A stretch of 32,000 bases of DNA from Candidatus Electrothrix sp. GW3-4 (lineage in GTDB: Bacteria > Desulfobacterota > Desulfobulbia > Desulfobulbales > Desulfobulbaceae): the NCBI RefSeq assembly GCF_037902255.1, contig NZ_CP147990.1, positions 3,540,001-3,572,000 on the forward strand. Direction: 5' to 3'. The number at the start of each line of letters is the position of its first letter. The first letter of the stretch is position 1. The position numbers were made by a program, and so were the translations under genes. Under the pieces are notes generated by a model. That model was not told where the DNA came from and did not search any database. It saw only the letters and a list, made by a program, of their open reading frames with translations. This document shows positions 2,766 through 24,152 of the stretch, in pieces.

Positions 2766-2839
2766 AGTATGTCCCAAGACCATGACGGACTCTCTGATCG
2801 ATTATGACTTACCAGTAAAGAATAATGACAAATCATGAC
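2766..2839 (-). promoter_or_regulatory. Candidate activator-dependent promoter: four GTCAT boxes plus a CATACT -10
   Basis: On the plus strand ATGAC occurs at 2782, 2804, 2825 and 2835 (spacings 22, 21, 10). agtatg at 2766-2771 (CATACT on the coding strand) lies 10 nt from the proximal box. The geometry is the same as at 5655-5728. Confidence 0.5.
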
Positions 2840-2896
2840 AAAACACTAATACTCGATAACCAACCGATGTACATGGAAGAATCACAAAGAAAAAAA

Positions 2897-3463
2897 CTAT
2901 ATTCTGTCTGCCAAAACAACATAACGCTGACTGGCATCTGCACTCATCCCCTGAAAAGGGTAACAGGTGACCAAGGCGAGCTGCGCACCTTGGTCCCGAT
3001 CAAAATAAAGATCTGTGGCAAGCCGTATCGTCGTTACATTCACCCTATATCGCCACTGCCTGCCCAGACTGTCTTCCAACGTAAAAATATCCCCCTTTTG
3101 CACCTTACGGAGAAAACTGAATTGGGTATCCCGGTGAGCTGCCAAAATACAGGGACCTGCCTGTCCCGGCTGAACTCCTGTCTCCAGCATACCTGGTCCA
3201 AAGGCAAGGGCCTGCCCTGACTGTCCTGCAAGGACAATCAGATCCTGGCTGTATTTTTCAGCACGTAGCCTCGCCACTGGCCAGGTATCGGCCCATGGCC
3301 AGGGCTTTACCAATACTCCCTGGCTCTGACTCTGCTGCCAGGCCTGTTGCAGGAGCACTTGCGCTAACAGGGCCTTGCCGTGTATCCACAGCCCATTGCC
3401 CAAGCAGAGGAGCCCGACGATAGCGGGAAAAAGAAGCAGTTTCCATGAGCATGTTATCTTCAT
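2897..3463 (-). CDS. Sortase of the Gram-negative (class GN / marine proteobacterial) type
   Basis: Catalytic-type motifs ILAAHRDT (His), LVTCYPF (Cys) and QRYVV (Arg), plus an N-terminal TM anchor. I prefer the start at ATG 3463, which is preceded by AAGGAGGAG and overlaps the upstream stop as ATGA. The track start at 3484 would place that RBS inside the coding sequence. Confidence 0.85.
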   Translation of the reverse strand: MKITCSWKLLLFPAIVGLLCLGNGLWIHGKALLAQVLLQQAWQQSQSQGVLVKPWPWADTWPVARLRAEKYSQDLIVLAGQSGQALAFGPGMLETGVQPGQAGPCILAAHRDTQFSFLRKVQKGDIFTLEDSLGRQWRYRVNVTTIRLATDLYFDRDQGAQLALVTCYPFQGMSADASQRYVVLADRI

Positions 3464-10490: not shown

Positions 10491-11765
10491 CTAGTAAATC
10501 CCCAAGGCCTCTACAGTCTCTTTTGTCAGTCCGCCCCCCTGAGCAAGTCCATTTTCACCCTGAAAAGCTCGAATAGCCTCATTGGTTGCCGGATTCAGCT
10601 TTCCATCAATCAGGCCGTTGTAAAAACCCAGCTGGCTTAAGGCTGTCTGTACCTGACGGATAGTTGAGTCAACAAGTTCGTCCTTACACAGTGCTGGCTT
10701 CCAGACTATCCTGGAATCGCTCACTTTAACCTTTTTAACAATGGTCTTGTACTCAGCAGGAACTGAAATAATATTCTCTTCTGCCGGTTTGACGAGTTTC
10801 TTTACCTTGACCGTTTTGTACTCAGGAGGAACAGGGACAGTACGTGACTGGGCCGGAGCGACCATTACTTTCTTCCTGATCATCTGGGTGACCGCAGGTA
10901 TGGTGACGACCTCCGTTCTCGCCGGAGCAACCATTACCTGCTTACGTACAGTTCCATATTCTGCTGGTATGGTGACGATTTCTGTCCTGGCAGGCTCAAC
11001 AACAACCCTTTTCCGAACAGTCTTGTATTCAGCAGGAATAACAACTTCCTGGCGGCATCCACCGATTTCACCTGCACAGTCTTTCGGTACTTTCTTGATC
11101 ACCGTCTTGTACATGGCTGGAACAGCTACGTAACATAGAGTATCACAGTCGGTCAACCCCATCTTAATATCTTCTGGTGAACAATGGGTGGTCTTTTTAA
11201 TCCATTTTGCAGAAGGTGCCTTAACCAAAACCTGCTCTTTCACCTCCTCATAACCAGGATCAGTGATGGTGATGGTGACAACTTCAGGAGAAACCATCAC
11301 CTGCTCATCTACCCATTCATACCGGGCAGGGATAGATTGCAGCTCCTCAGAAGCCTCCTTGATCACGACCTGTTCATCACGCCATTCATACTGGGCAGGA
11401 ATGACGTTAATCTCTTCTGAACCTTCTTTGATAACGACCTCTTCATCCCTCCACTCAAACTGGGCAGGAATTGTCTCAATCTTCTCAGAAGCTTCTTTAG
11501 CGATAACCCGTTCGTCAATCCATTCATACTCAGCCGGGATAATTTCTGTTCGTTCCATAGCTGGTGCAATCTCAATTTCTTCCTCTACATCCTCATAGAC
11601 AGCAGGAGCAAGACAACGAGAGTAACACTCACCAGGCTGAACATTGGCCGGGAATCCCTCATTAATGAATTGAGCCGGATCAATCTGACCATACTGAGCA
11701 GCTGCGGGTGAAGATACCGCGAAGAGCAAAGCGGCAGCTACCACGAAATTCCTTTTCTTCAACAT
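10491..11765 (-). CDS. Secreted repeat protein (about eleven ~23-aa xPAxY repeats, Cys-rich centre) with a C-terminal PG_binding_1-type domain; paralog 2
   Basis: I prefer the start MLKKRNFVVAAALLFAVSSPAAAQ at 11765 because the track extension runs into the intergenic hairpin. Repeats include IPAEYEWIDERVIAKEASEKIET and IPAEYKTVRKRVVVEPARTEIVT. C-terminus LSQLGFYNGLIDGKLNPATNEAIRAFQGENGL. Confidence 0.75.
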   Translation of the reverse strand: MLKKRNFVVAAALLFAVSSPAAAQYGQIDPAQFINEGFPANVQPGECYSRCLAPAVYEDVEEEIEIAPAMERTEIIPAEYEWIDERVIAKEASEKIETIPAQFEWRDEEVVIKEGSEEINVIPAQYEWRDEQVVIKEASEELQSIPARYEWVDEQVMVSPEVVTITITDPGYEEVKEQVLVKAPSAKWIKKTTHCSPEDIKMGLTDCDTLCYVAVPAMYKTVIKKVPKDCAGEIGGCRQEVVIPAEYKTVRKRVVVEPARTEIVTIPAEYGTVRKQVMVAPARTEVVTIPAVTQMIRKKVMVAPAQSRTVPVPPEYKTVKVKKLVKPAEENIISVPAEYKTIVKKVKVSDSRIVWKPALCKDELVDSTIRQVQTALSQLGFYNGLIDGKLNPATNEAIRAFQGENGLAQGGGLTKETVEALGIY

Positions 11766-11826
11766 TTCTTCTTTTTCCCTTTTTCTGATACGTATTCTCG
11801 GGTTATACGGTGTAAAAACAGAAAGA

Positions 11827-11845
11827 GGCACTTAAAAAAGTGCCC
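11827..11845 (-). terminator. Intergenic hairpin between the two paralogs
   Basis: ggcactt (11827-11833) pairs with aagtgcc (11839-11845) across a 5-nt A loop. T-rich sequence follows on both strands. Confidence 0.4.
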
Positions 11846-11872: not shown

Positions 11873-13279
11873 CTAGTAGATTCCTAAAGACTCAAGCGTT
11901 TCGATGGTCATCCCACCACCCTGCGGTAAGGCACGATCTGCCTGATAGGCTCTCAGTGCCTCATTGGTCTCCGGGGTCAGGACACCATTAATCTCACCAG
12001 CGTAAAAGCCTTCTCGACTCAAAGCACTTTGCATTTCTCTGATCTTCGAATCAACGGCTTCATCCTCACAAAGAGCCGGACGCCATACGATCTTACTATC
12101 GCTAACTTTAACTTTTTTGATAATAGTCTTGTATTCGGCAGGAACCTGAATAACGTTTTCCTCAGCCGCTTTCACAAGCTTTTTCACCTTGACTGTCTTG
12201 TACTCAGCAGGAACCGGGATAACCTCTGTTCTGGCAGGCTCAACCATTACCCTCTTCCGTACCATTCTGTACTCAGCAGGTATATTAACGACTTCTGTCC
12301 TGGCAGGCTCAACCAAAACCTGCTTGCGTACCATTCTGTACTCAGCAGGAATCTGAACCGTTTCGGTCCTTGCGGGCTCTACCACAACCTTTGTTCTGAT
12401 CGGCTTGTATTCTGCCGGGATGACCACTTCCTGACGGCATCCGTCAACTCCACCAGCACAGTCCGTGGGTACCTTTTTGATAACCGTCTTATACATAGCC
12501 GGGACGGCTACATAACAAAGGGTATCACAGTCGGTCAGTCCCATCTTGATATCTTCAGGAGAGCAATGCGTCGCTTTTTTAATCCACTTTGCAGAAGGCG
12601 CCTTGACCAAAACCTGCTCTTTCACCTCTTGAAAACCGGGATCGGTCAGAGTAATCTTGACCATCTCAGGAGAAACCATAACCTGGCCTTCACGCCAAGC
12701 ATAAACTGCGGGAATAGCTTTAAGCTCTTCGGAAGCCTCTTTTACCACTTCCTGAACATCCTGCCACTCGTACCGGGCAGGAATAACCTTGATCTCCTCT
12801 GACGCCTCTTTTACCAAGACCTCTTCTTCGACCCAATCATATTGTGCAGGAATGACCTTAATCTTTTCAGATGCCTCTTTGGCAATGACCTCTTCATCCA
12901 CCCATTCGTATTCGGCAGGAATGATCTCGGTCCGCTCCATCGCTGGAGCTACCTCAATTTGCTCTTCTACATCTTCAAACACAGCCGGAGCAAGACAGCG
13001 AGAGTAGCACTCACCAGGGTTAACATTGGTCGGCAGCCCTTCACCAAGGTCCTGCTGTGCAACCATTGGCGCAGCAGCAACTGGCCCAGACATCTGCACA
13101 ACATCTTGAGCGACAACCTGCTGGGCAGCCTGTTGCTCTCCTTTTGCCTCTTCACAAGGGCCCTGAACACAGGGCTGTTCACCAGAACCCTGCGGGACAT
13201 AGGCTACGTCCGCCACACAACCAGTTAAGGCAAAAAGAGCGATAGCCCCGATGGCCACGCCATTCTTCATCTGTTTCAT
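11873..13279 (-). CDS. Lipoprotein repeat protein (same xPAxY repeat architecture) with a C-terminal PG_binding_1-type domain; paralog 1
   Basis: RBS AAGGAGAGG. Lipobox LFALTGC. A Q/A-rich linker, then acidic repeats (IPAEYEWVDEEVIAKEASEKIKV), then basic repeats (IPAEYRMVRKQVLVEPARTEVVN). C-terminus LSREGFYAGEINGVLTPETNEALRAYQ. Confidence 0.8.
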   Translation of the reverse strand: MKQMKNGVAIGAIALFALTGCVADVAYVPQGSGEQPCVQGPCEEAKGEQQAAQQVVAQDVVQMSGPVAAAPMVAQQDLGEGLPTNVNPGECYSRCLAPAVFEDVEEQIEVAPAMERTEIIPAEYEWVDEEVIAKEASEKIKVIPAQYDWVEEEVLVKEASEEIKVIPARYEWQDVQEVVKEASEELKAIPAVYAWREGQVMVSPEMVKITLTDPGFQEVKEQVLVKAPSAKWIKKATHCSPEDIKMGLTDCDTLCYVAVPAMYKTVIKKVPTDCAGGVDGCRQEVVIPAEYKPIRTKVVVEPARTETVQIPAEYRMVRKQVLVEPARTEVVNIPAEYRMVRKRVMVEPARTEVIPVPAEYKTVKVKKLVKAAEENVIQVPAEYKTIIKKVKVSDSKIVWRPALCEDEAVDSKIREMQSALSREGFYAGEINGVLTPETNEALRAYQADRALPQGGGMTIETLESLGIY

Positions 13280-19136: not shown

Positions 19137-19213
19137 GCGCCTGTAGCTCATCTGGATAGAGTATCGGACTACGAATCCGAGGGTAGCAGGTTCGAATCCT
19201 GCCAGGCGCACCA
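19137..19213 (+). tRNA. tRNA-Arg (anticodon ACG), CCA encoded
   Basis: Acceptor stem GCGCCTG/CAGGCGC. Anticodon arm tcgga-CTACGAA-tccga. T arm GCAGG-TTCGAAT-CCTGC. 3' ACCA. Confidence 0.9.
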
Positions 19214-19376: not shown

Positions 19377-19826
19377 ATGAAGATTGTCTGCAAAAACAAG
19401 AAGGCCTTTCATGATTATCATATCGATAAGACCATGGAAGCAGGCATGGTCTTGACCGGACCAGAGGTCAAGTCGTTGCGAGCAGGCCGGGCCAATATTA
19501 AGGATGGCTATGCCCAGCTCAAGAACGGTGAAGTCTTTTTGTACAATATTCATATTTCGCCCTATGCCTTTACCAGCCACTCAGCCACAGACCCACTGCG
19601 AGTGCGTAAGATCCTGTTGCACAAGCGGGAAATACGAAAACTGATCGGCAAGCTGAATGAAAAAGGGGTTGCGCTTATTCCGCTCAAGATATATTTTATT
19701 AATAATGGAAAGGCCAAGATTGAACTTGGCCTGGCTCGCGGCAAGAAGCTCTACGATAAACGAGCCGCTTTAAAAGAAAAGCAATCAAAGCGTGATGTTC
19801 AACGATCATTGCGCCAGCAAGACTAA
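19377..19826 (+). CDS. smpB: SsrA-binding protein
   Basis: [27 protein letters not shown] and a basic C-terminal tail. It lies directly upstream of ssrA. Confidence 0.95.
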
Positions 19827-19831
19827 TACAT

Positions 19832-20193
19832 GGGGGTGAAACGGATTCGACGGGGATATGAAAGCTCAACGTTGCATGCCGAGTGTTCTGTCAGCTCGTA
19901 AACTTGATGGAATCTTAAATATAATCGCTGACGATTATAACTACGCAATGGCAGCGTAAGCTGCTTTGCCGCTTTCCCGGTCCGCGCCCGTAAGGCCGGT
20001 GTAAAGCGTCGACTCTTCGGGCTGGTCTCACCGATGTGCCTCTCATCGGAAAGACGAGAACTTAACAGGCTGGTATTCAGCAATCCCCTGTTCCGGGTGA
20101 GAGCTGGATACGAGATTTTTACCCGGAACTAAGCATGTAGATACGTGAGGGGAGTATTTTCGGACCCGGGTTCAACTCCCGGCACCTCCACCA
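19832..20193 (+). ncRNA. ssrA: tmRNA (one-piece), tag peptide ADDYNYAMAA
   Basis: 5' GGGGGUGAAACGGAUUCGACGGGG. Tag ORF gct gac gat tat aac tac gca atg gca gcg at 19927-19956, then taa at 19957-19959. 3' GGACCCGGGUUCAACUCCCGGCACCUCCACCA. Acceptor pairing is GGGGGUG/CACCUCC with a G-U at position 3. Confidence 0.95.
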
Positions 20194-20204
20194 AGCAGCA
20201 GATA

Positions 20205-20238
20205 AGCCCGCAACCTGATACGGTTTGCGGGCTTTTTT
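20205..20238 (+). terminator. Rho-independent terminator of ssrA
   Basis: agcccgcaa..ttgcgggct stem followed by TTTTTT. Confidence 0.8.
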
Positions 20239-20383
20239 GTGTGCCTTTCCTTCTTTTTTCTTTTTTACAATTATTGTAATGGACTATAGCGGATTTGAGG
20301 TAAACTCCCGATAAGGTCTTCCATCATATATGCGGCCTTTGGAAAAACAACTCACACTCGTACAGAGGAAATCAGGCGATCAA

Positions 20384-20625
20384 TTTTAAAAAGCAGCCGT
20401 TCATCTTTTAAAGATCAGCCACTACTTTTTAAAAGCGGGTGTTGGATTTTAAAAGGTGAGAGGTCTCCTTTTAAAGGTCAGGTCTCAACTTTTAAAACTC
20501 AGGCGGCACCTTTAAAAGGTATGCTCTCATCTTTTCAAGGAGGGCTATGGGAATTAAAAGGTGACGCCTCGCCTTTTAAAGATGGGGCATGGGAATTAAA
20601 AGGCGGGCGGATGGTTAAAAAAAAA
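20384..20625. repeat. Array of 12 phased repeats (~21-bp period) with a (CC)TTTTAAAA(GG) palindromic core
   Basis: T/A core centres lie at about 20387, 20409, 20430, 20450, 20472, 20493, 20513, 20535 (degenerate), 20555, 20577, 20597 and 20616. Spacings are 19-22 bp. atgggaattaaaagg recurs exactly 42 bp apart. No ORF is present. Confidence 0.8.
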
Positions 20626-21167
20626 GACCGGTCGTCTTGTCATCAGAAGCCAGCGACAAAAAGAAAAGGAGAGACATATTTTGAGTAAGAGCGTACTGAA
20701 TTATTGCAGAAAGCAAACGAGATAAAGAAGGCACTGTTGACCTGCTCAAGGGAGTAACTCAGAGGCCGCCGGGAAGGTCAGGTCATTAATGGGAGCTGGC
20801 GAGCTTGGTGGTTTCTGAACACTTGCACACCAGTTGTCTTTAAGATTCGAACCTGTAACCCCGACCGTTAACCCGCATCACTGCGCGGTCTGAAAATGGG
20901 CTGTGATACCGGGAAGGATACATTCTTTCATTACAACAGCCAGTTTATCCTTGCCTTATGAATGTTCTTATGTTTATCAATTGTATTAGTCAGAACTGAT
21001 TAAGTTTCCATGTTATCAATAGATAACCGTTGATATCCTGGAAAAGCAAAAAAGAAATCAATAAACTGGAAATATTTTTCCAGTTTTCTCGCTTAATACG
21101 TAATAGCCTGGAAAGTTGGTCCATATATAGGGTAATACCCTATCCCGATTCCAGGTTATCCACACTG

Positions 21168-22368
21168 TTAGAGCAAGGATATTCTGAGCCATGGACTTTA
21201 ATACAGTAAGCACATTTCAGAGGCTAGGTGTTCCCCCTAATGTAATTAACACGGTTTTGGTAATCATAATCGTTCTTCTTCTCGCACCTTATGTAGGCGG
21301 GACCGATTTTGGGGTTTTTAAAGTACCAGATTTTCCGCCAACAATAGAGTATCTGCTCAAGTGGATCGGGCCGTTTCTATTGTTGGTATTTGTAATTCTA
21401 TTTATACCTGCATGGAAAACTAATAAAGTCGAAATCGGAGCAGAAAAAAAAGATCAGCCAAACGCGGTACATTCGAAGTCTAAGTACAGGCTGCAAAGTA
21501 CTCCAGATATCATTTTAAATGAGCTCCACAGGCAAAATGTTAACACAGGCGGAATTAGAATTATTCCAGGAATCAATATCCATGACCTTAAAAAGCGCAT
21601 TAAAATATTAAACACACAGCTATCTGACGAAAGAATAAATCAATTAGTGGAATCTGCACGTGAAACTGCTTTTACATCCAAGTATGCCGCACCTAAAGAA
21701 GATGAGAAATTAGTAAGTATTACAGAATTGAAGGTTCAAGGAATTCAGGAATGGCACATTTATTTAGAACAATTTTTGTCCAGACTGGGGGTTCCTGATA
21801 TCAAGAACATTGATGTGTTAGATGTGGGTATCGGTAACGCCTATGCGTCGCAAGTATTTTTGGGTAGCTGCGCGAGTTTAACTGGCGTAGATATCTCTCA
21901 TGAGGCGATAACATACGCCAAAAATAAGCTACCTAATGCGGTGTTCAAAATCGGGGGTGCAGAGGATTTAAAAGAAATTGAATCATTTTCGATGGATTTA
22001 TATATATCACTAAGAACATATCAATCGACACTCTTTGATATCAAAGAATCCCTTCATGAGGCATATAGGGTATTAGCAAAAGGTGGAGGACTAGTAGTTT
22101 CCATCCCAAACATGTTTCTTAAAAAAAATGACTCAGGAAAGATCATAGGTGTTTTGTATGGTCTTATACCTCCAGGATCAACCGCACCTAGTGTTGAGTT
22201 TGCAATGCAAATTTCGGAAAAGATTCAAGAATACATGAATTTATTAGGCTTCAAAGACGTCGAACTGTACAAGGAATCGCCGTTCGAAATATTCATTGGC
22301 GCTAGAAAATAAAGCTCTAACACGGCGCTCAAGCGGATGCTCCTGACGTCGCACCGCTTAGCTTGGCG
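21168..22368 (+). mobile_element. Integron-type gene cassette (single ORF plus attC) with no integrase in the window
   Basis: The upstream core G|TTAGAG (21167-21173) is the exact complement of the R'' box CTCTAAC of the attC at the 3' end. This is as expected for one cassette bounded by G|TT crossover points. Confidence 0.6.
21191..22312 (+). CDS. Membrane-anchored class I SAM-dependent methyltransferase (cassette ORF)
   Basis: Two N-terminal TM helices (VINTVLVIIIVLLLAPYV, FLLLVFVILFIPAW). SAM motif I VLDVGIGNAYAS, acidic loop GVDIS, and AKGGGLVVSIPN. Confidence 0.7.
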   Translation: MDFNTVSTFQRLGVPPNVINTVLVIIIVLLLAPYVGGTDFGVFKVPDFPPTIEYLLKWIGPFLLLVFVILFIPAWKTNKVEIGAEKKDQPNAVHSKSKYRLQSTPDIILNELHRQNVNTGGIRIIPGINIHDLKKRIKILNTQLSDERINQLVESARETAFTSKYAAPKEDEKLVSITELKVQGIQEWHIYLEQFLSRLGVPDIKNIDVLDVGIGNAYASQVFLGSCASLTGVDISHEAITYAKNKLPNAVFKIGGAEDLKEIESFSMDLYISLRTYQSTLFDIKESLHEAYRVLAKGGGLVVSIPNMFLKKNDSGKIIGVLYGLIPPGSTAPSVEFAMQISEKIQEYMNLLGFKDVELYKESPFEIFIGARK

Positions 22369-22374: not shown

Positions 22375-22492
22375 GCATAAGAGATTTTATATTAAATTCG
22401 ATTTCCTACCAGGCTCGACACAAAACACCTCATCACACTTTTCCTTTTCTTAACGACCTCAATTTCACCGGCCCGGTGCCTGCATTCAGGTA

Positions 22493-22520
22493 TTGACAAT
22501 ACAGCCCCTTAATGTACTAT
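22493..22520 (+). promoter_or_regulatory. Sigma70-type promoter candidate
   Basis: TTGACA (22493-22498), a 16-nt spacer, then TACTAT (22515-22520). It lies about 77 nt upstream of ATG 22597. Confidence 0.4.
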
Positions 22521-22596
22521 ATTTGTAATCGTGCCCGATCCCCAGTTACAGACATGATTTGTATCACGGTCAGGCCTTCTTGTTTTCGGTGTCCTC

Positions 22597-23280
22597 ATGC
22601 CTTCCCCGCCTCTTATCAAACCCCATTTAGAATACCCTCTTGTTGCCCGTCTCAAAGAACGGGGGATGATCATTCCCGATGAAGCAAGGGCAATCCGCAA
22701 GCTGTCTCAAATAGGATACTACCGGTTAAGCGGCTTCAGCTATCCGTGCAGCCGTCCCAGATTTGACTATGGGGTCCACTTTAATGCTCTTAACTCAGAT
22801 AAAGATGACATTATAACGTTGATCTACATGAGGCGGCATTTTGAGCTCACCGATGATAAAGGCGATGCTTATCAAGTGTTGTCGAACCTCTTACACAAAA
22901 GGGAACGGGCCATAGATACTCGAGAACCCAAAGGCACCGGCGAGAACCATCCTGAGATGGAGGGCGGAAAGTTTTCTTCAGGATGCGATCAACTTATAAA
23001 TGTTATGCCCAGTTTTTCATACTCCGACATGTTACATCGAGTTGAAGATAAAGATTCTTTGAAGTCACTTTACGAATCATGCTCTAATGGCTATGAGAAG
23101 CTGCAAGTGTGCCGACTTATTGAACACGAGGAAAACAATGCTGTTGTTGAGAAATCTATCAAGCAGACATATCACATCGAAAATGAATTCATCTGCCAGC
23201 TTGATCTCGCTGAATTTGACACTATTCCAGAATATGTGATCTCCAAATGTGATGCGATTGTTAGTGGAGATTCAGCATGA
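22597..23280 (+). CDS. Hypothetical protein. The first ~50 aa resemble the N-terminus of Abi (Abi_2/AbiD-F-like) proteins and the remainder is unrecognised (possible fusion or remnant).
   Basis: KPHLEYPLVARLKERGMIIPDEARAIRKLSQIGYYRLSGFSYP matches the Abi_2 N-terminal pattern (..RGL.I.D......L..i.YYRLSGY..PF). After about residue 50 the similarity ends. Confidence 0.4.
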   Translation: MPSPPLIKPHLEYPLVARLKERGMIIPDEARAIRKLSQIGYYRLSGFSYPCSRPRFDYGVHFNALNSDKDDIITLIYMRRHFELTDDKGDAYQVLSNLLHKRERAIDTREPKGTGENHPEMEGGKFSSGCDQLINVMPSFSYSDMLHRVEDKDSLKSLYESCSNGYEKLQVCRLIEHEENNAVVEKSIKQTYHIENEFICQLDLAEFDTIPEYVISKCDAIVSGDSA

Positions 23281-23408: not shown

Positions 23409-24152
23409 ATGTTAGATTTCACGAAACTCGACGAGCTTAAGCAGAAACTTGATTCCTTCCGGCCTCTGCCACCAGAAATTGTTACTAATCTCCATGAGGA
23501 TCTGGTGCTTCGCTGGACCTACCACTCCAATGCCATTGAAGGCAATACGCTAACTCTGAAAGAAACCAAGGTCGCTCTGGAAGGGATCACTATTGGTGGG
23601 AAAAGCATGCGGGAGCATTTTGAAGCGATCAACCACAGAGAAGCCATTTTTTTCGTTGAAGATCTGGTCAAGAAAAATGAGCCCCTGTCTGAATGGCAGA
23701 TCAAATCGATCCACCAGTTGATCCTGAAAAATATTGATAACAAAAATGCGGGGACCTATAGGAAAACAAATGTCATTATCTCTGGTGCCGATCATGTACC
23801 GCCTGATGCTTTGCATGTAGAAAATGATATGCAACATTTTATCAACTGGTATCAAATTGAGGGGACATCTCTTCATCCGGTAGAACGAGCTGCCCGTGTA
23901 CATGCTGATTTTGTGAAAATCCATCCCTTTGTAGACGGCAATGGCAGGACATCACGGCTGCTGATGAATCTGGAATTGACGAAAAGTGGCTTTCCACCGG
24001 TTGTCCTGCCTGTGGAAAATCGACTGGCGTATTACGAGGCTCTGGATAGAGCCCACACGAAAAACGATTATGAACCGTTTTTGATGCTGATTGCGAATAT
24101 TGCGGAATCTGGATTCAAACCTTACTGGCATGCATTGGGGGTCACCCCATGA
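23409..24152 (+). CDS. fic: Fic/DOC family protein (AMPylase-type Fic motif)
   Basis: Core motif HPFVDGNGRTSRLLMN (HxFx[DE]GNGRxxR). N-terminal helical region with SNAIEGNTLT. Confidence 0.9.
   Translation: MLDFTKLDELKQKLDSFRPLPPEIVTNLHEDLVLRWTYHSNAIEGNTLTLKETKVALEGITIGGKSMREHFEAINHREAIFFVEDLVKKNEPLSEWQIKSIHQLILKNIDNKNAGTYRKTNVIISGADHVPPDALHVENDMQHFINWYQIEGTSLHPVERAARVHADFVKIHPFVDGNGRTSRLLMNLELTKSGFPPVVLPVENRLAYYEALDRAHTKNDYEPFLMLIANIAESGFKPYWHALGVTP

Follow-up and report, generated by a model that had tools for sequence, protein, structure and literature searches.

A phased array of twelve T4A4-type direct repeats beyond ssrA in a cable bacterium

Plasmid iterons, such as those of F, P1, RK2, and R6K, are oriented direct repeats of about 21 to 22 bp that are present in 5 to 12 copies, lie on one face of the helix, and are recognized by one cooperatively binding protein. 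True iterons and centromere repeats are alike across most of the repeat unit. The datA and DARS loci are single-copy and intergenic, and their clustered binding sites act on a protein that is encoded elsewhere. The P2 C repressor binds cooperatively to 8-bp direct repeats that are two helical turns apart (PMC2995052), and the 12 direct repeats of F sopC, each with a palindromic core, are bound by SopB (PMC3177203). Here we describe a repeat array in a 32,000-nucleotide stretch of DNA (hereafter the window) from Candidatus Electrothrix sp. GW3-4 (contig NZ_CP147990.1, positions 3,540,001 to 3,572,000). The host replicon is the 4.64-Mb chromosome of this marine cable bacterium, and the array lies beyond ssrA, the gene for transfer-messenger RNA (tmRNA). 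It is a phased direct-repeat array that falls outside every named family, and we tentatively interpret it as a one-face set of cooperative protein-binding sites within an accessory noncoding cassette.

The array among described repeat systems

The array was found exactly where a first-pass annotation of the sequence had placed it (Table 1). Its units, registered on the 8-mer core, begin at positions 20384, 20406, 20427, 20447, 20469, 20490, 20510, 20532, 20553, 20574, 20595, and 20615. Because ssrA occupies 19832-20193, the array starts 190 bp past the 3′ end of that gene, and it is also past the ssrA terminator. Spacings in this register are 22, 21, 20, 22, 21, 20, 22, 21, 21, 21, and 20 bp, with a mean of 21.0 bp and a root-mean-square deviation of 0.47 bp from a 21.0-bp lattice. 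The first-pass series, which ended in 22, 20, 22, 20, and 19 bp and averaged 20.8 bp, describes this array too, with distances taken between successive central TpA steps. Periods of 21 and 42 were detected by Tandem Repeats Finder, and an exact copy of atgggaattaaaagg at 20547 recurs 42 bp away at 20589. Within the array, the AT/GC pattern has a spectral power of 7.9 at period 21, whereas the rest of the 32 kb reaches at most 1.67, with a median of 0.17. Furthermore, TTTTAAAA is present four times in the array and nowhere else in the 32 kb, and TTTAAA is present eight times in the 242 bp of the array and seven times elsewhere. The phased array is real and far beyond chance, and its sites, phased at two helical turns, fall on one face of the helix as had been supposed. 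The additional claim of a 63-bp super-period applies to the spacing pattern only, since spacer identity at lag 63 (0.39) does not exceed the values at lags 21, 42, and 84 (0.37-0.42; background 0.25).

All cores are two-fold symmetric AT 8-mers of the T4A4 type, and none is of the A4T4 type. Four of the 12 match TTTTAAAA exactly (its core-scrambled counterpart is GTCTGAGA), and five are degenerate (CTTTAAAA, TTTTCAAG, ATTAAAAG twice, and TTAAAAAA); the variants differ from TTTTAAAA by one or two mismatches. The first-pass annotation had extended the palindrome into flanking CC and GG dinucleotides. The AT core is symmetric, but its flanks are not, in that G or GG follows most cores on the 3′ side and CC precedes just three or four on the 5′ side. 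The units are therefore oriented direct repeats. Their spacers share position-specific similarity from unit to unit (P = 0.001).

The array is also predicted to be unusually straight. The wedge model, with the parameters of Bolshoy 1991 and with controls that behaved as expected (A4T4 curved, 53 degrees; T4A4 straight, 2.7 degrees), predicts an end-to-end/contour ratio of 0.983, which is at the 99th percentile of straightness within the window. The curvature prediction proposed at the outset thus gave straight DNA, and intrinsically curved DNA of the phased A-tract kind was rejected. A cluster of restriction sites of the DraI type was rejected too: outside the array, TTTAAA is found 7 times against 7.5 expected, with no sign of avoidance.

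Among described systems, iterons share with the array both orientation and a phasing of about two helical turns. However, only 8-10 of the 21 bp are shared between units of the array, in place of likeness over most of a unit of 17-22 bp. The array also lacks a rep gene, a DnaA box, and a separate AT-rich unwinding element, and it is chromosomal and probably single-copy, with no plasmid sequence match. An iteron origin was rejected on unit likeness and on the lack of these accompanying elements. The F sopC locus likewise has twelve tandem direct repeats with a palindromic core and whole-turn spacing, but its units are 43 bp long and nearly identical, carry a 16-bp GC-containing inverted repeat, and adjoin sopAB (PMC3177203), whereas the array has 21-bp units, diverged spacers, an AT-only 8-bp core, and no par genes. 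A partition centromere of the ParB/SopB, ParR, or ribbon-helix-helix (RHH) type was rejected on its chromosomal location and on the lack of par genes, parS, and any plasmid or phage match. Indeed, the adjacent rep or par gene that would accompany an iteron or a ParR/RHH centromere, as suggested in the first-pass annotation, was not found in the Pfam scans, which covered all large non-overlapping window open reading frames (ORFs) except one (131 amino acids, 2825-3220). The P2 C operator is similar in its 8-bp direct repeats, two-turn spacing, and cooperatively binding dimers, but it consists of two half-sites that overlap a promoter beside the repressor gene (PMC2995052); the array has twelve sites, no repressor gene, and no evident overlap with a promoter.

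Certain RNAs offer a second set of parallels. CsrB/RsmZ, CrcZ, ToxI, and the AbiF noncoding RNA (ncRNA) (PMC12373285) are, like the array, noncoding elements with many copies of a short motif, differing contexts, a defense setting, and promoter- and terminator-like ends. The array motif is U4A4 rather than GGA or an A-rich CA motif, the 21-nucleotide units are mostly unstructured, and there is neither an adjacent cognate toxin gene nor an Rfam match. A type III toxin-antitoxin array, defined by near-identical repeats of 34-50 nucleotides, a terminator, and an endoRNase, was rejected because the units are 21 nucleotides long and diverged and the next gene encodes a methyltransferase or Fic. A sponge of the CsrB/RsmZ type, with GGA or ANGGA in loops, was likewise rejected because neither motif is enriched (GGA, 13 versus 11.6 ± 2.9 expected; ANGGA, 4 versus 3.6) and no Rfam match exists. 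So was a CRISPR array, which would have identical repeats of at least 23 bp and cas genes, as the common core is 8-10 bp and the Pfam scans revealed no Cas domains. The sites clustered in datA and DARS are irregularly spaced and comprise DnaA boxes as well as IHF or Fis sites; those consensus sequences are absent here. Lastly, the position at the ssrA 3′ end fits the attachment-site arm of a tmRNA-targeting integrative element, with a polymorphic junction at the CCA end; in the window, however, there is no integrase (Pfam scans) and no copy of the ssrA end, just the terminator-like hairpin at 20872-20888.

Distribution, conservation, and the ssrA hot spot

We fetched 80 SmpB-anchored loci, one per species, and found the array 3′ of ssrA in one of these, from a Desulfobulbaceae/Electrothrix metagenome-assembled genome (contig JAABTP010000003; locus L005). 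It is absent from at least 14 other cable-bacteria ssrA loci. None of seven other Electrothrix species carries it, nor do E. scaldis and two metagenome relatives found by way of BioC, nor three individually inspected Electronema loci (L016-L018). In automated scans for the core motif and for periodicity, two more Electronema loci (L029 and L038) gave no signal. The window SmpB is 93-96% identical to that of Ca. E. aarhusensis, E. laxa, E. gigas, and E. marina, the BioC and SmpB anchors yielded no relative closer than E. aarhusensis or E. laxa, and further retrieved contigs were identical either to the window or to L005. The first-pass annotation had named absence from all relatives, without conservation of the core, as the finding that would count against its reading; this is not the case, because core and phasing are both conserved in the sister species L005.

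The annotation had also proposed a search of related islands or plasmids. No similar array was found in 72,556 plasmids or 50,697 phages. A four-core pattern gave 53 matches in IMG/VR, all of them ordinary tandem repeats with identical units, mostly in AT-rich giant viruses and phages, and the element-specific pattern GGGSYATGGGAATYAAAAGGYG gave none in viral contigs. The same pattern gave one chance match within a coding region in JGI metagenomes, in a search whose exact 22-mer misses orthologues below about 93% identity. At threshold, Rfam 15 recognizes only the tmRNA and tRNA-Arg in the window, and at E values up to 10 the sole matches are spurious, of miRNA type, and far below gathering scores. 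A literature search found no description of this array. Dispersed repeats of the REP/BIME, BOX, or MITE kind have many copies per genome. The block around the array is probably single-copy, in that no second copy is present in the 32-kb window and two independent short-read assemblies cross the block uninterrupted.

One unrelated array was seen in the course of this survey. In Ca. Electronema halotolerans (L017, 8262-8385), about 2.4 kb past ssrA, five units with a 22-23-bp period present T4A6-type AT cores between palindromic GC-rich spacers (CACCGAGCGGTG). This array is not homologous to that of the window, and no further strong periodicity of 21-22 bp was seen in the roughly 600 kb of cable-bacteria loci that we fetched.

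All comparative statements made here rest on two sequences, the window and L005. From their alignment, a conserved gene-free block spans about 20258-20900, and constraint within it is strongest at 20384-20760 (Table 1). The array has diverged by 5.4% and the flanks of the block by 13% (P = 0.011 and 0.015), which argues for constraint on the array itself. Its conservation equals that of tmRNA (P = 0.71) and far exceeds that of synonymous sites (P = 3e-15). Three of the four core substitutions in L005 are A/T exchanges, and two make the degenerate cores 7 and 12 better T4A4 sequences. The array is under apparent selection. A lack of coding potential, as claimed originally, was borne out. A 55-amino-acid ORF (20521-20688) is open in L005 too, but its 7 nucleotide differences cause 6 amino-acid changes and therefore reveal no protein-level constraint, and its translation has no homologue among 5.8 billion proteins.

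The array block stands at the head of a defense-gene islet that varies between species. About 950 bp without a credible gene separate the ssrA terminator from the methyltransferase gene of the window. In L005, the block is followed directly by Fic and then by SDR and SecB as in the window, with no methyltransferase or 227-amino-acid ORF. Because a methyltransferase gene follows the block in one species and Fic in the other, the array is no classical operator for one neighboring gene. In other Electrothrix, what comes after the ssrA terminator is either an Abi_2 or YhcG nuclease cassette with type I restriction-modification (RM) genes behind it or toxin-antitoxin modules. Two Logan contigs of the L005 species, from different samples (L261 and L262), end at L005 position 1812/1813, which is the ssrA CCA end. 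Two assemblies of the window strain (L246 and L258) end at window position 21026, and the Logan assembly L259 ends at window position 20258. These shared breakpoints suggest presence/absence or repeat polymorphism 3′ of ssrA within populations. The shuffled cassettes and the assembly breaks at CCA mark the 3′ end of ssrA as a hot spot of accessory cassettes, of which the array block is one that is free of genes. The mobile-element setting first proposed therefore holds with respect to the variable defense and toxin-antitoxin context 3′ of ssrA, but not with respect to a rep, par, or integrase gene traveling with the array.

Cassettes bracketed by ssrA ends were seen in four loci (L001-L004). 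There, a cassette of about 1.4 kb lies straight after ssrA and is closed by a second ssrA 3′ end and terminator copy (Table 1). The cargo is Abi_2 in L003 and L004 and a YhcG/DUF1016 nuclease in L001 and L002, with type I RM genes next, and the arrangement looks like integrase-less insertion at the tmRNA gene.

Possible functions of the array

Although we hold it with less than even confidence, a DNA-level function is the explanation that we prefer. A gene-free, probably single-copy cassette (about 20258-20900) may have been inserted at the integration hot spot of the tmRNA gene, with the array as its core. At each of its 12 oriented sites (consensus TTTTAAA(A/G)G), a deformable TpA step would lie at the center, with a narrow A-tract minor groove on either side. 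Two whole helical turns separate neighboring sites along an intrinsically straight rod of 250 bp, so that copies of a protein could align cooperatively on one face. Perhaps one DNA-binding protein encoded elsewhere in the genome occupies that face in many copies and builds a cooperative nucleoprotein filament. The likely outcomes would be silencing of the accessory genes or their insulation from the very strongly transcribed ssrA, titration of the protein, or a mark for recombination on the cassette.

The 21.0-bp phasing and the palindromic core favor function as DNA, and so does an arrangement that is straight yet flexible at TpA and made up of T4A4 to the exclusion of A4T4. RNA folding points the same way. 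The first-pass annotation had proposed that each unit could form a small hairpin if transcribed, but this fails in 8-9 of 11 units. Only units 4 and 9, and weakly unit 7, are capable of it, and the others give 0 to -0.9 kcal/mol, which does not surpass shuffled spacers. Fold z-scores of the whole array against shuffles are -4.6 and -4.9 on the two strands, a near equality that self-complementary cores produce automatically. There is thus no strand-specific RNA structure, as DNA-level symmetry predicts. RNAalifold on the window and L005 found one compensatory pair on the plus strand and none on the minus strand, which is uninformative for two sequences.

Several observations count against this interpretation. 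The tendency of the units to keep within 1 bp of the lattice departs only weakly from randomness (P about 0.06-0.10). Cores and spacers have diverged to the same degree (4.2%, or 4 of 96 nucleotides, versus 6.2%, or 9 of 146; P = 0.57), and such spacer conservation is unexpected for a protein that reads only the core and would let the spacers drift. The boundaries of the block look like those of a plus-strand transcription unit. The array is known from two sister species only, and a recent exchange of the cassette between the two lineages would mean that shared ancestry, not selection, accounts for some of the conservation. The Pfam scans revealed no Rep, Par, integrase, transposase, Cas, or candidate DNA-binding gene nearby or co-conserved, and DnaA box (0 mismatches), IHF, and parS consensus sequences are absent from the conserved block.

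The main alternative, possible but on balance unlikely, is that the block is a plus-strand ncRNA gene of roughly 0.6 kb (about 20297-20890). Its 12 U4A4 modules, each in a fixed G-rich context of its own, would form a multivalent platform for an RNA-binding protein and serve as a sponge, a scaffold, or an antitoxin-like RNA by a logic resembling that of CsrB/RsmZ, CrcZ, or ToxI. Sponge RNAs are expected to show motif likeness from unit to unit while orthologous spacers stay fixed, and the array, including its spacers, is conserved like the adjacent tmRNA. This argument is weakened because cassettes are exchanged at the ssrA site. Conservation sets in at a pair of promoter-like hexamers, which the two species share unchanged and between which the spacer varies, and it ends at a hairpin whose stem is kept while its loop varies, and which in L005 has a T-tail and a terminator score. 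However, the promoter-like spacer is 15 bp, and the hairpin in the window lacks a U tail. The alternative is also favored by a TTGACA-N17-TATTTT module that other Electrothrix carry in the same direction just past the ssrA terminator, by the independence of the block from the gene that follows, and by a plus strand that is rich in purines and G (GC skew +0.20). A cassette without genes is more naturally an RNA gene, and RNA antitoxin arrays are known in defense islets such as this one (PMC12373285). In contrast, no Rfam family is matched even at E = 10, GGA occurs at about its expected frequency, just 2-3 of 11 units fold, covariation is essentially nil, and the fold z-scores are equal on the two strands. 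There is also no RNA-level reason for an exact period of 21.0 or for a palindromic core.

It is doubtful, but conceivable, that the locus represents a protein-free mobile cassette at the tmRNA hot spot with a previously undescribed repeat-array element, whether an ncRNA of about 0.6 kb whose twelve phased U4A4 modules sequester an RNA-binding protein or toxin within the defense islet, or a DNA decoy or titration array for a DNA-binding protein. Either form, if true, would define a family without described members. A true docking platform, whether DNA or RNA, would be a rare accessory cassette with a noncoding repeat array as its sole cargo, and its location would be the classic integration site at tmRNA, in cable bacteria that are still poorly understood. 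Such a platform would provide a handle for isolating its nucleic-acid-binding protein and insight into the insulation or regulation of defense islets beside ssrA. The finding is limited in reach to two sister species, in organisms that are not genetically tractable.

We consider it improbable that the array is a relic, in which a 21-bp unit was expanded by tandem duplication and the similarity between species reflects recent cassette exchange at ssrA rather than function. The restriction to two sister species, the polymorphic locus in the L005 species (where two Logan contigs end at the ssrA CCA), the shuffling of cassettes between species at this site, and the common descent evident among spacers all agree with it. 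Yet the units are old, with spacers about 38% alike, while the 21-bp register and 10 of the 12 cores have survived intact. Divergence is uneven, at 5.4% in the array versus 13% in the flanks (P about 0.01), and a supposedly slippage-prone repeat shows zero indels in 242 bp.

A transcriptional insulator is very improbable. It would consist of weak, bidirectional, terminator-like modules (A-tract, GC, U-tract) that block read-through between ssrA and toxic accessory genes. Units 4, 7, and 9 are A4-hairpin-U4 modules, with unit 9 just under terminator criteria, and cassettes in other species are bracketed by copies of the ssrA terminator. However, 8-9 of 11 units have no hairpin, a strong terminator already lies 5′ of the array, and termination needs neither twelve units nor exact phasing.

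The L005 order of array, terminator-like hairpin, and Fic speaks for a strict type III toxin-antitoxin RNA array, but the L005 Fic bears its own inhibitory motif (SNAIEG, read from the translation), a motif that is auto-inhibitory in Fic proteins, and Fic elsewhere lies within type I RM operons without any array. Together with a plasmid/phage-type iteron origin and a partition centromere, this reading is extremely unlikely and largely refuted by the membership tests: a 21-22-bp period and the copy number are typical of iterons, and sopC likewise has 12 repeats (PMC3177203), but the locus has neither a rep, par, or toxin-RNase gene nor near-identical units, and no plasmid, phage, or viral match was found. 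A Tn7-like end was rejected as well, since the Pfam scans revealed no transposase domain.

Other features of the block and its neighborhood

Table 1. Features of the ssrA locus in the window (coordinates refer to the window unless a locus is named; identities are to L005).
Feature	Position	Strand	Description
bioF-bioG-bioC	5′ of tRNA-Arg		
tRNA-Arg	19137-19213		
smpB	19377-19826		85% identity at all positions, 63% at third codon positions
ssrA (tmRNA)	19832-20193	+	Tag peptide ADDYNYAMAA; ARAGORN; Rfam RF00023, 203 bits; 95.3% identity
ssrA intrinsic terminator	20204-20240	+	Inverted repeat AAGCCCGCAA...TTGCGGGCTTTTTT; 85% identity; copies flank other cassettes in L001-L004
Pre-array region	20246-20383		87% identity
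Pre-array conserved segment	20258-20383	+	~87% identity
Promoter-like hexamers	20264-20269 and 20285-20290		TTTACA and TATAGC; spacer only 15 bp
Perfect 15-bp palindrome	20265-20279		TTACAATTATTGTAA; overlaps promoter-like -35 hexamer; one mismatch in L005
Repeat array	20384-20625	.	12 units: T4A4-type core plus 12-14-bp spacer (63% GC), period 21.0 bp; 94.6% identity, zero indels in 242 bp
Unit-4 quasi-palindrome	20451-20472	+	AAAAGGTGAGAGGTCTCCTTTT; folds well (-5.6 kcal/mol); weakened in L005
Mini-ORF of 5 codons	20537-20564	+	Strong Shine-Dalgarno (SD)-like AAGGAGGG; ATG GGA ATT AAA AGG TGA, encodes MGIKR-stop
Unit-9 hairpin	20554-20579	+	9-bp stem, CGCC loop, -7.7 kcal/mol, then TTTT; just under terminator criteria
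Weak hairpin	20624-20638		AAGAC-CGGTC-GTCTT; on minus strand then run of 9 T, which coincides with unit 12
Post-array segment	20626-20760	+	93.3% identity; 63% purine
SD and TTG ORF of 14 codons	20666-20725 (ORF 20681-20725)	+	SD AAGGAGAG; peptide MSKSVLNYCRKQTR
Distal part of block	20761-20912	+	87% identity; L005 homology stops about 20912
Distal region, identity	20761-20890		87% identity; not alignable beyond about 20912
Terminal hairpin	20872-20888	+	CCCGCA-N4-TGCGCGG; stem conserved, loop variable; no U tail in window
SAM (S-adenosylmethionine) methyltransferase	21191-22312		565 bp past array
227-amino-acid ORF	22597-23280		AbiD-like N-terminus, PDC-S06 C-terminus
Fic	23409-24152		Match to PDC-S04/SoFic
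SDR, SecB, type IV pilus genes	3′ of Fic		
Second ssrA-end/terminator copies	L001 7223-7259; L002 7212-7252; L003 2850-2886; L004 7267-7321		Each corresponds to window 20188-20242

The two promoter-like hexamers at the start of the block are identical in L005, with three changes in the spacer between them, and the site was not called by a promoter scan. The palindrome that overlaps it is a possible operator. At the other end of the block, the terminal hairpin of L005 runs into a T-rich tail and is scored as a terminator on the plus strand. The 5-codon mini-ORF lies within a 72-nucleotide stretch that is fully identical in L005, and the 14-codon ORF differs there by one replacement and one silent change. 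These two SD-preceded ORFs could be leader peptides or could occur by chance. A tRNA-like fragment at 20846-20855 was rejected, as it was not called by ARAGORN and is not conserved in L005.

Eight other loci (L003, L004, L006, L009, L010, L254, L256, and L257) carry a module about 50-110 nucleotides past the ssrA terminator with the form GTCCG..TCCGGGG..GTCCGTTGACAGCCACGAAAAATTACAGTAT(TTTTTACAGTA). It includes a good TTGACA-N17-TATTTT promoter-like site that faces the cassette region and is common to most Electrothrix. The window and L005 keep just a remnant of this module (TTTTTTACAATTATTGTAA).

The genes 3′ of the block are of the defense type. Among them, a PADLOC scan of the five nearest ORFs gave no match to ToxN-, AbiQ-, or CptN-like proteins. 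In L005, none of the genes past the array (Fic, SDR, and SecB) is par-like, as judged from homology to window proteins. An inverted repeat, TATCAA-N10-TTGATA at 21009-21032, coincides with the breakpoint of two assemblies and lies 5′ of the methyltransferase gene, which has no counterpart in L005. This repeat may be the edge of another cassette.

The 227-amino-acid ORF is a chimera of an AbiD-like N-terminus and a PDC-S06 C-terminus. Positions 22445-22771, which comprise about 150 nucleotides 5′ of this ORF and its first 58-63 codons, are 88-90% identical to the region before Abi_2 in L003 and L004, and the region has no Rfam match. An antitoxin ncRNA is known upstream of AbiF/Abi_2 genes (PMC12373285).

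The Fic family to which the window protein belongs shows 77-90% identity across distant phyla (Desulfobacteraceae, Spirochaetes, Chlorobi, and Synergistetes). The gene usually lies in a type I RM operon, flanked by hsdM/hsdS on one side and hsdR on the other, and no array is present there. The Fic proteins of the window and of L005 are each 90% identical to a Desulfobacteraceae protein and 87% identical to one another.

Elsewhere in the window, tandem repeats of 69 bp (23 codons) with 78-79% identity are present at 11263-11498, 12199-12390, and 12776-12924. They lie within two paralogous genes that are next to each other on the minus strand (10491-11831 and 11873-13279) and that each encode a C-terminal peptidoglycan-binding domain.

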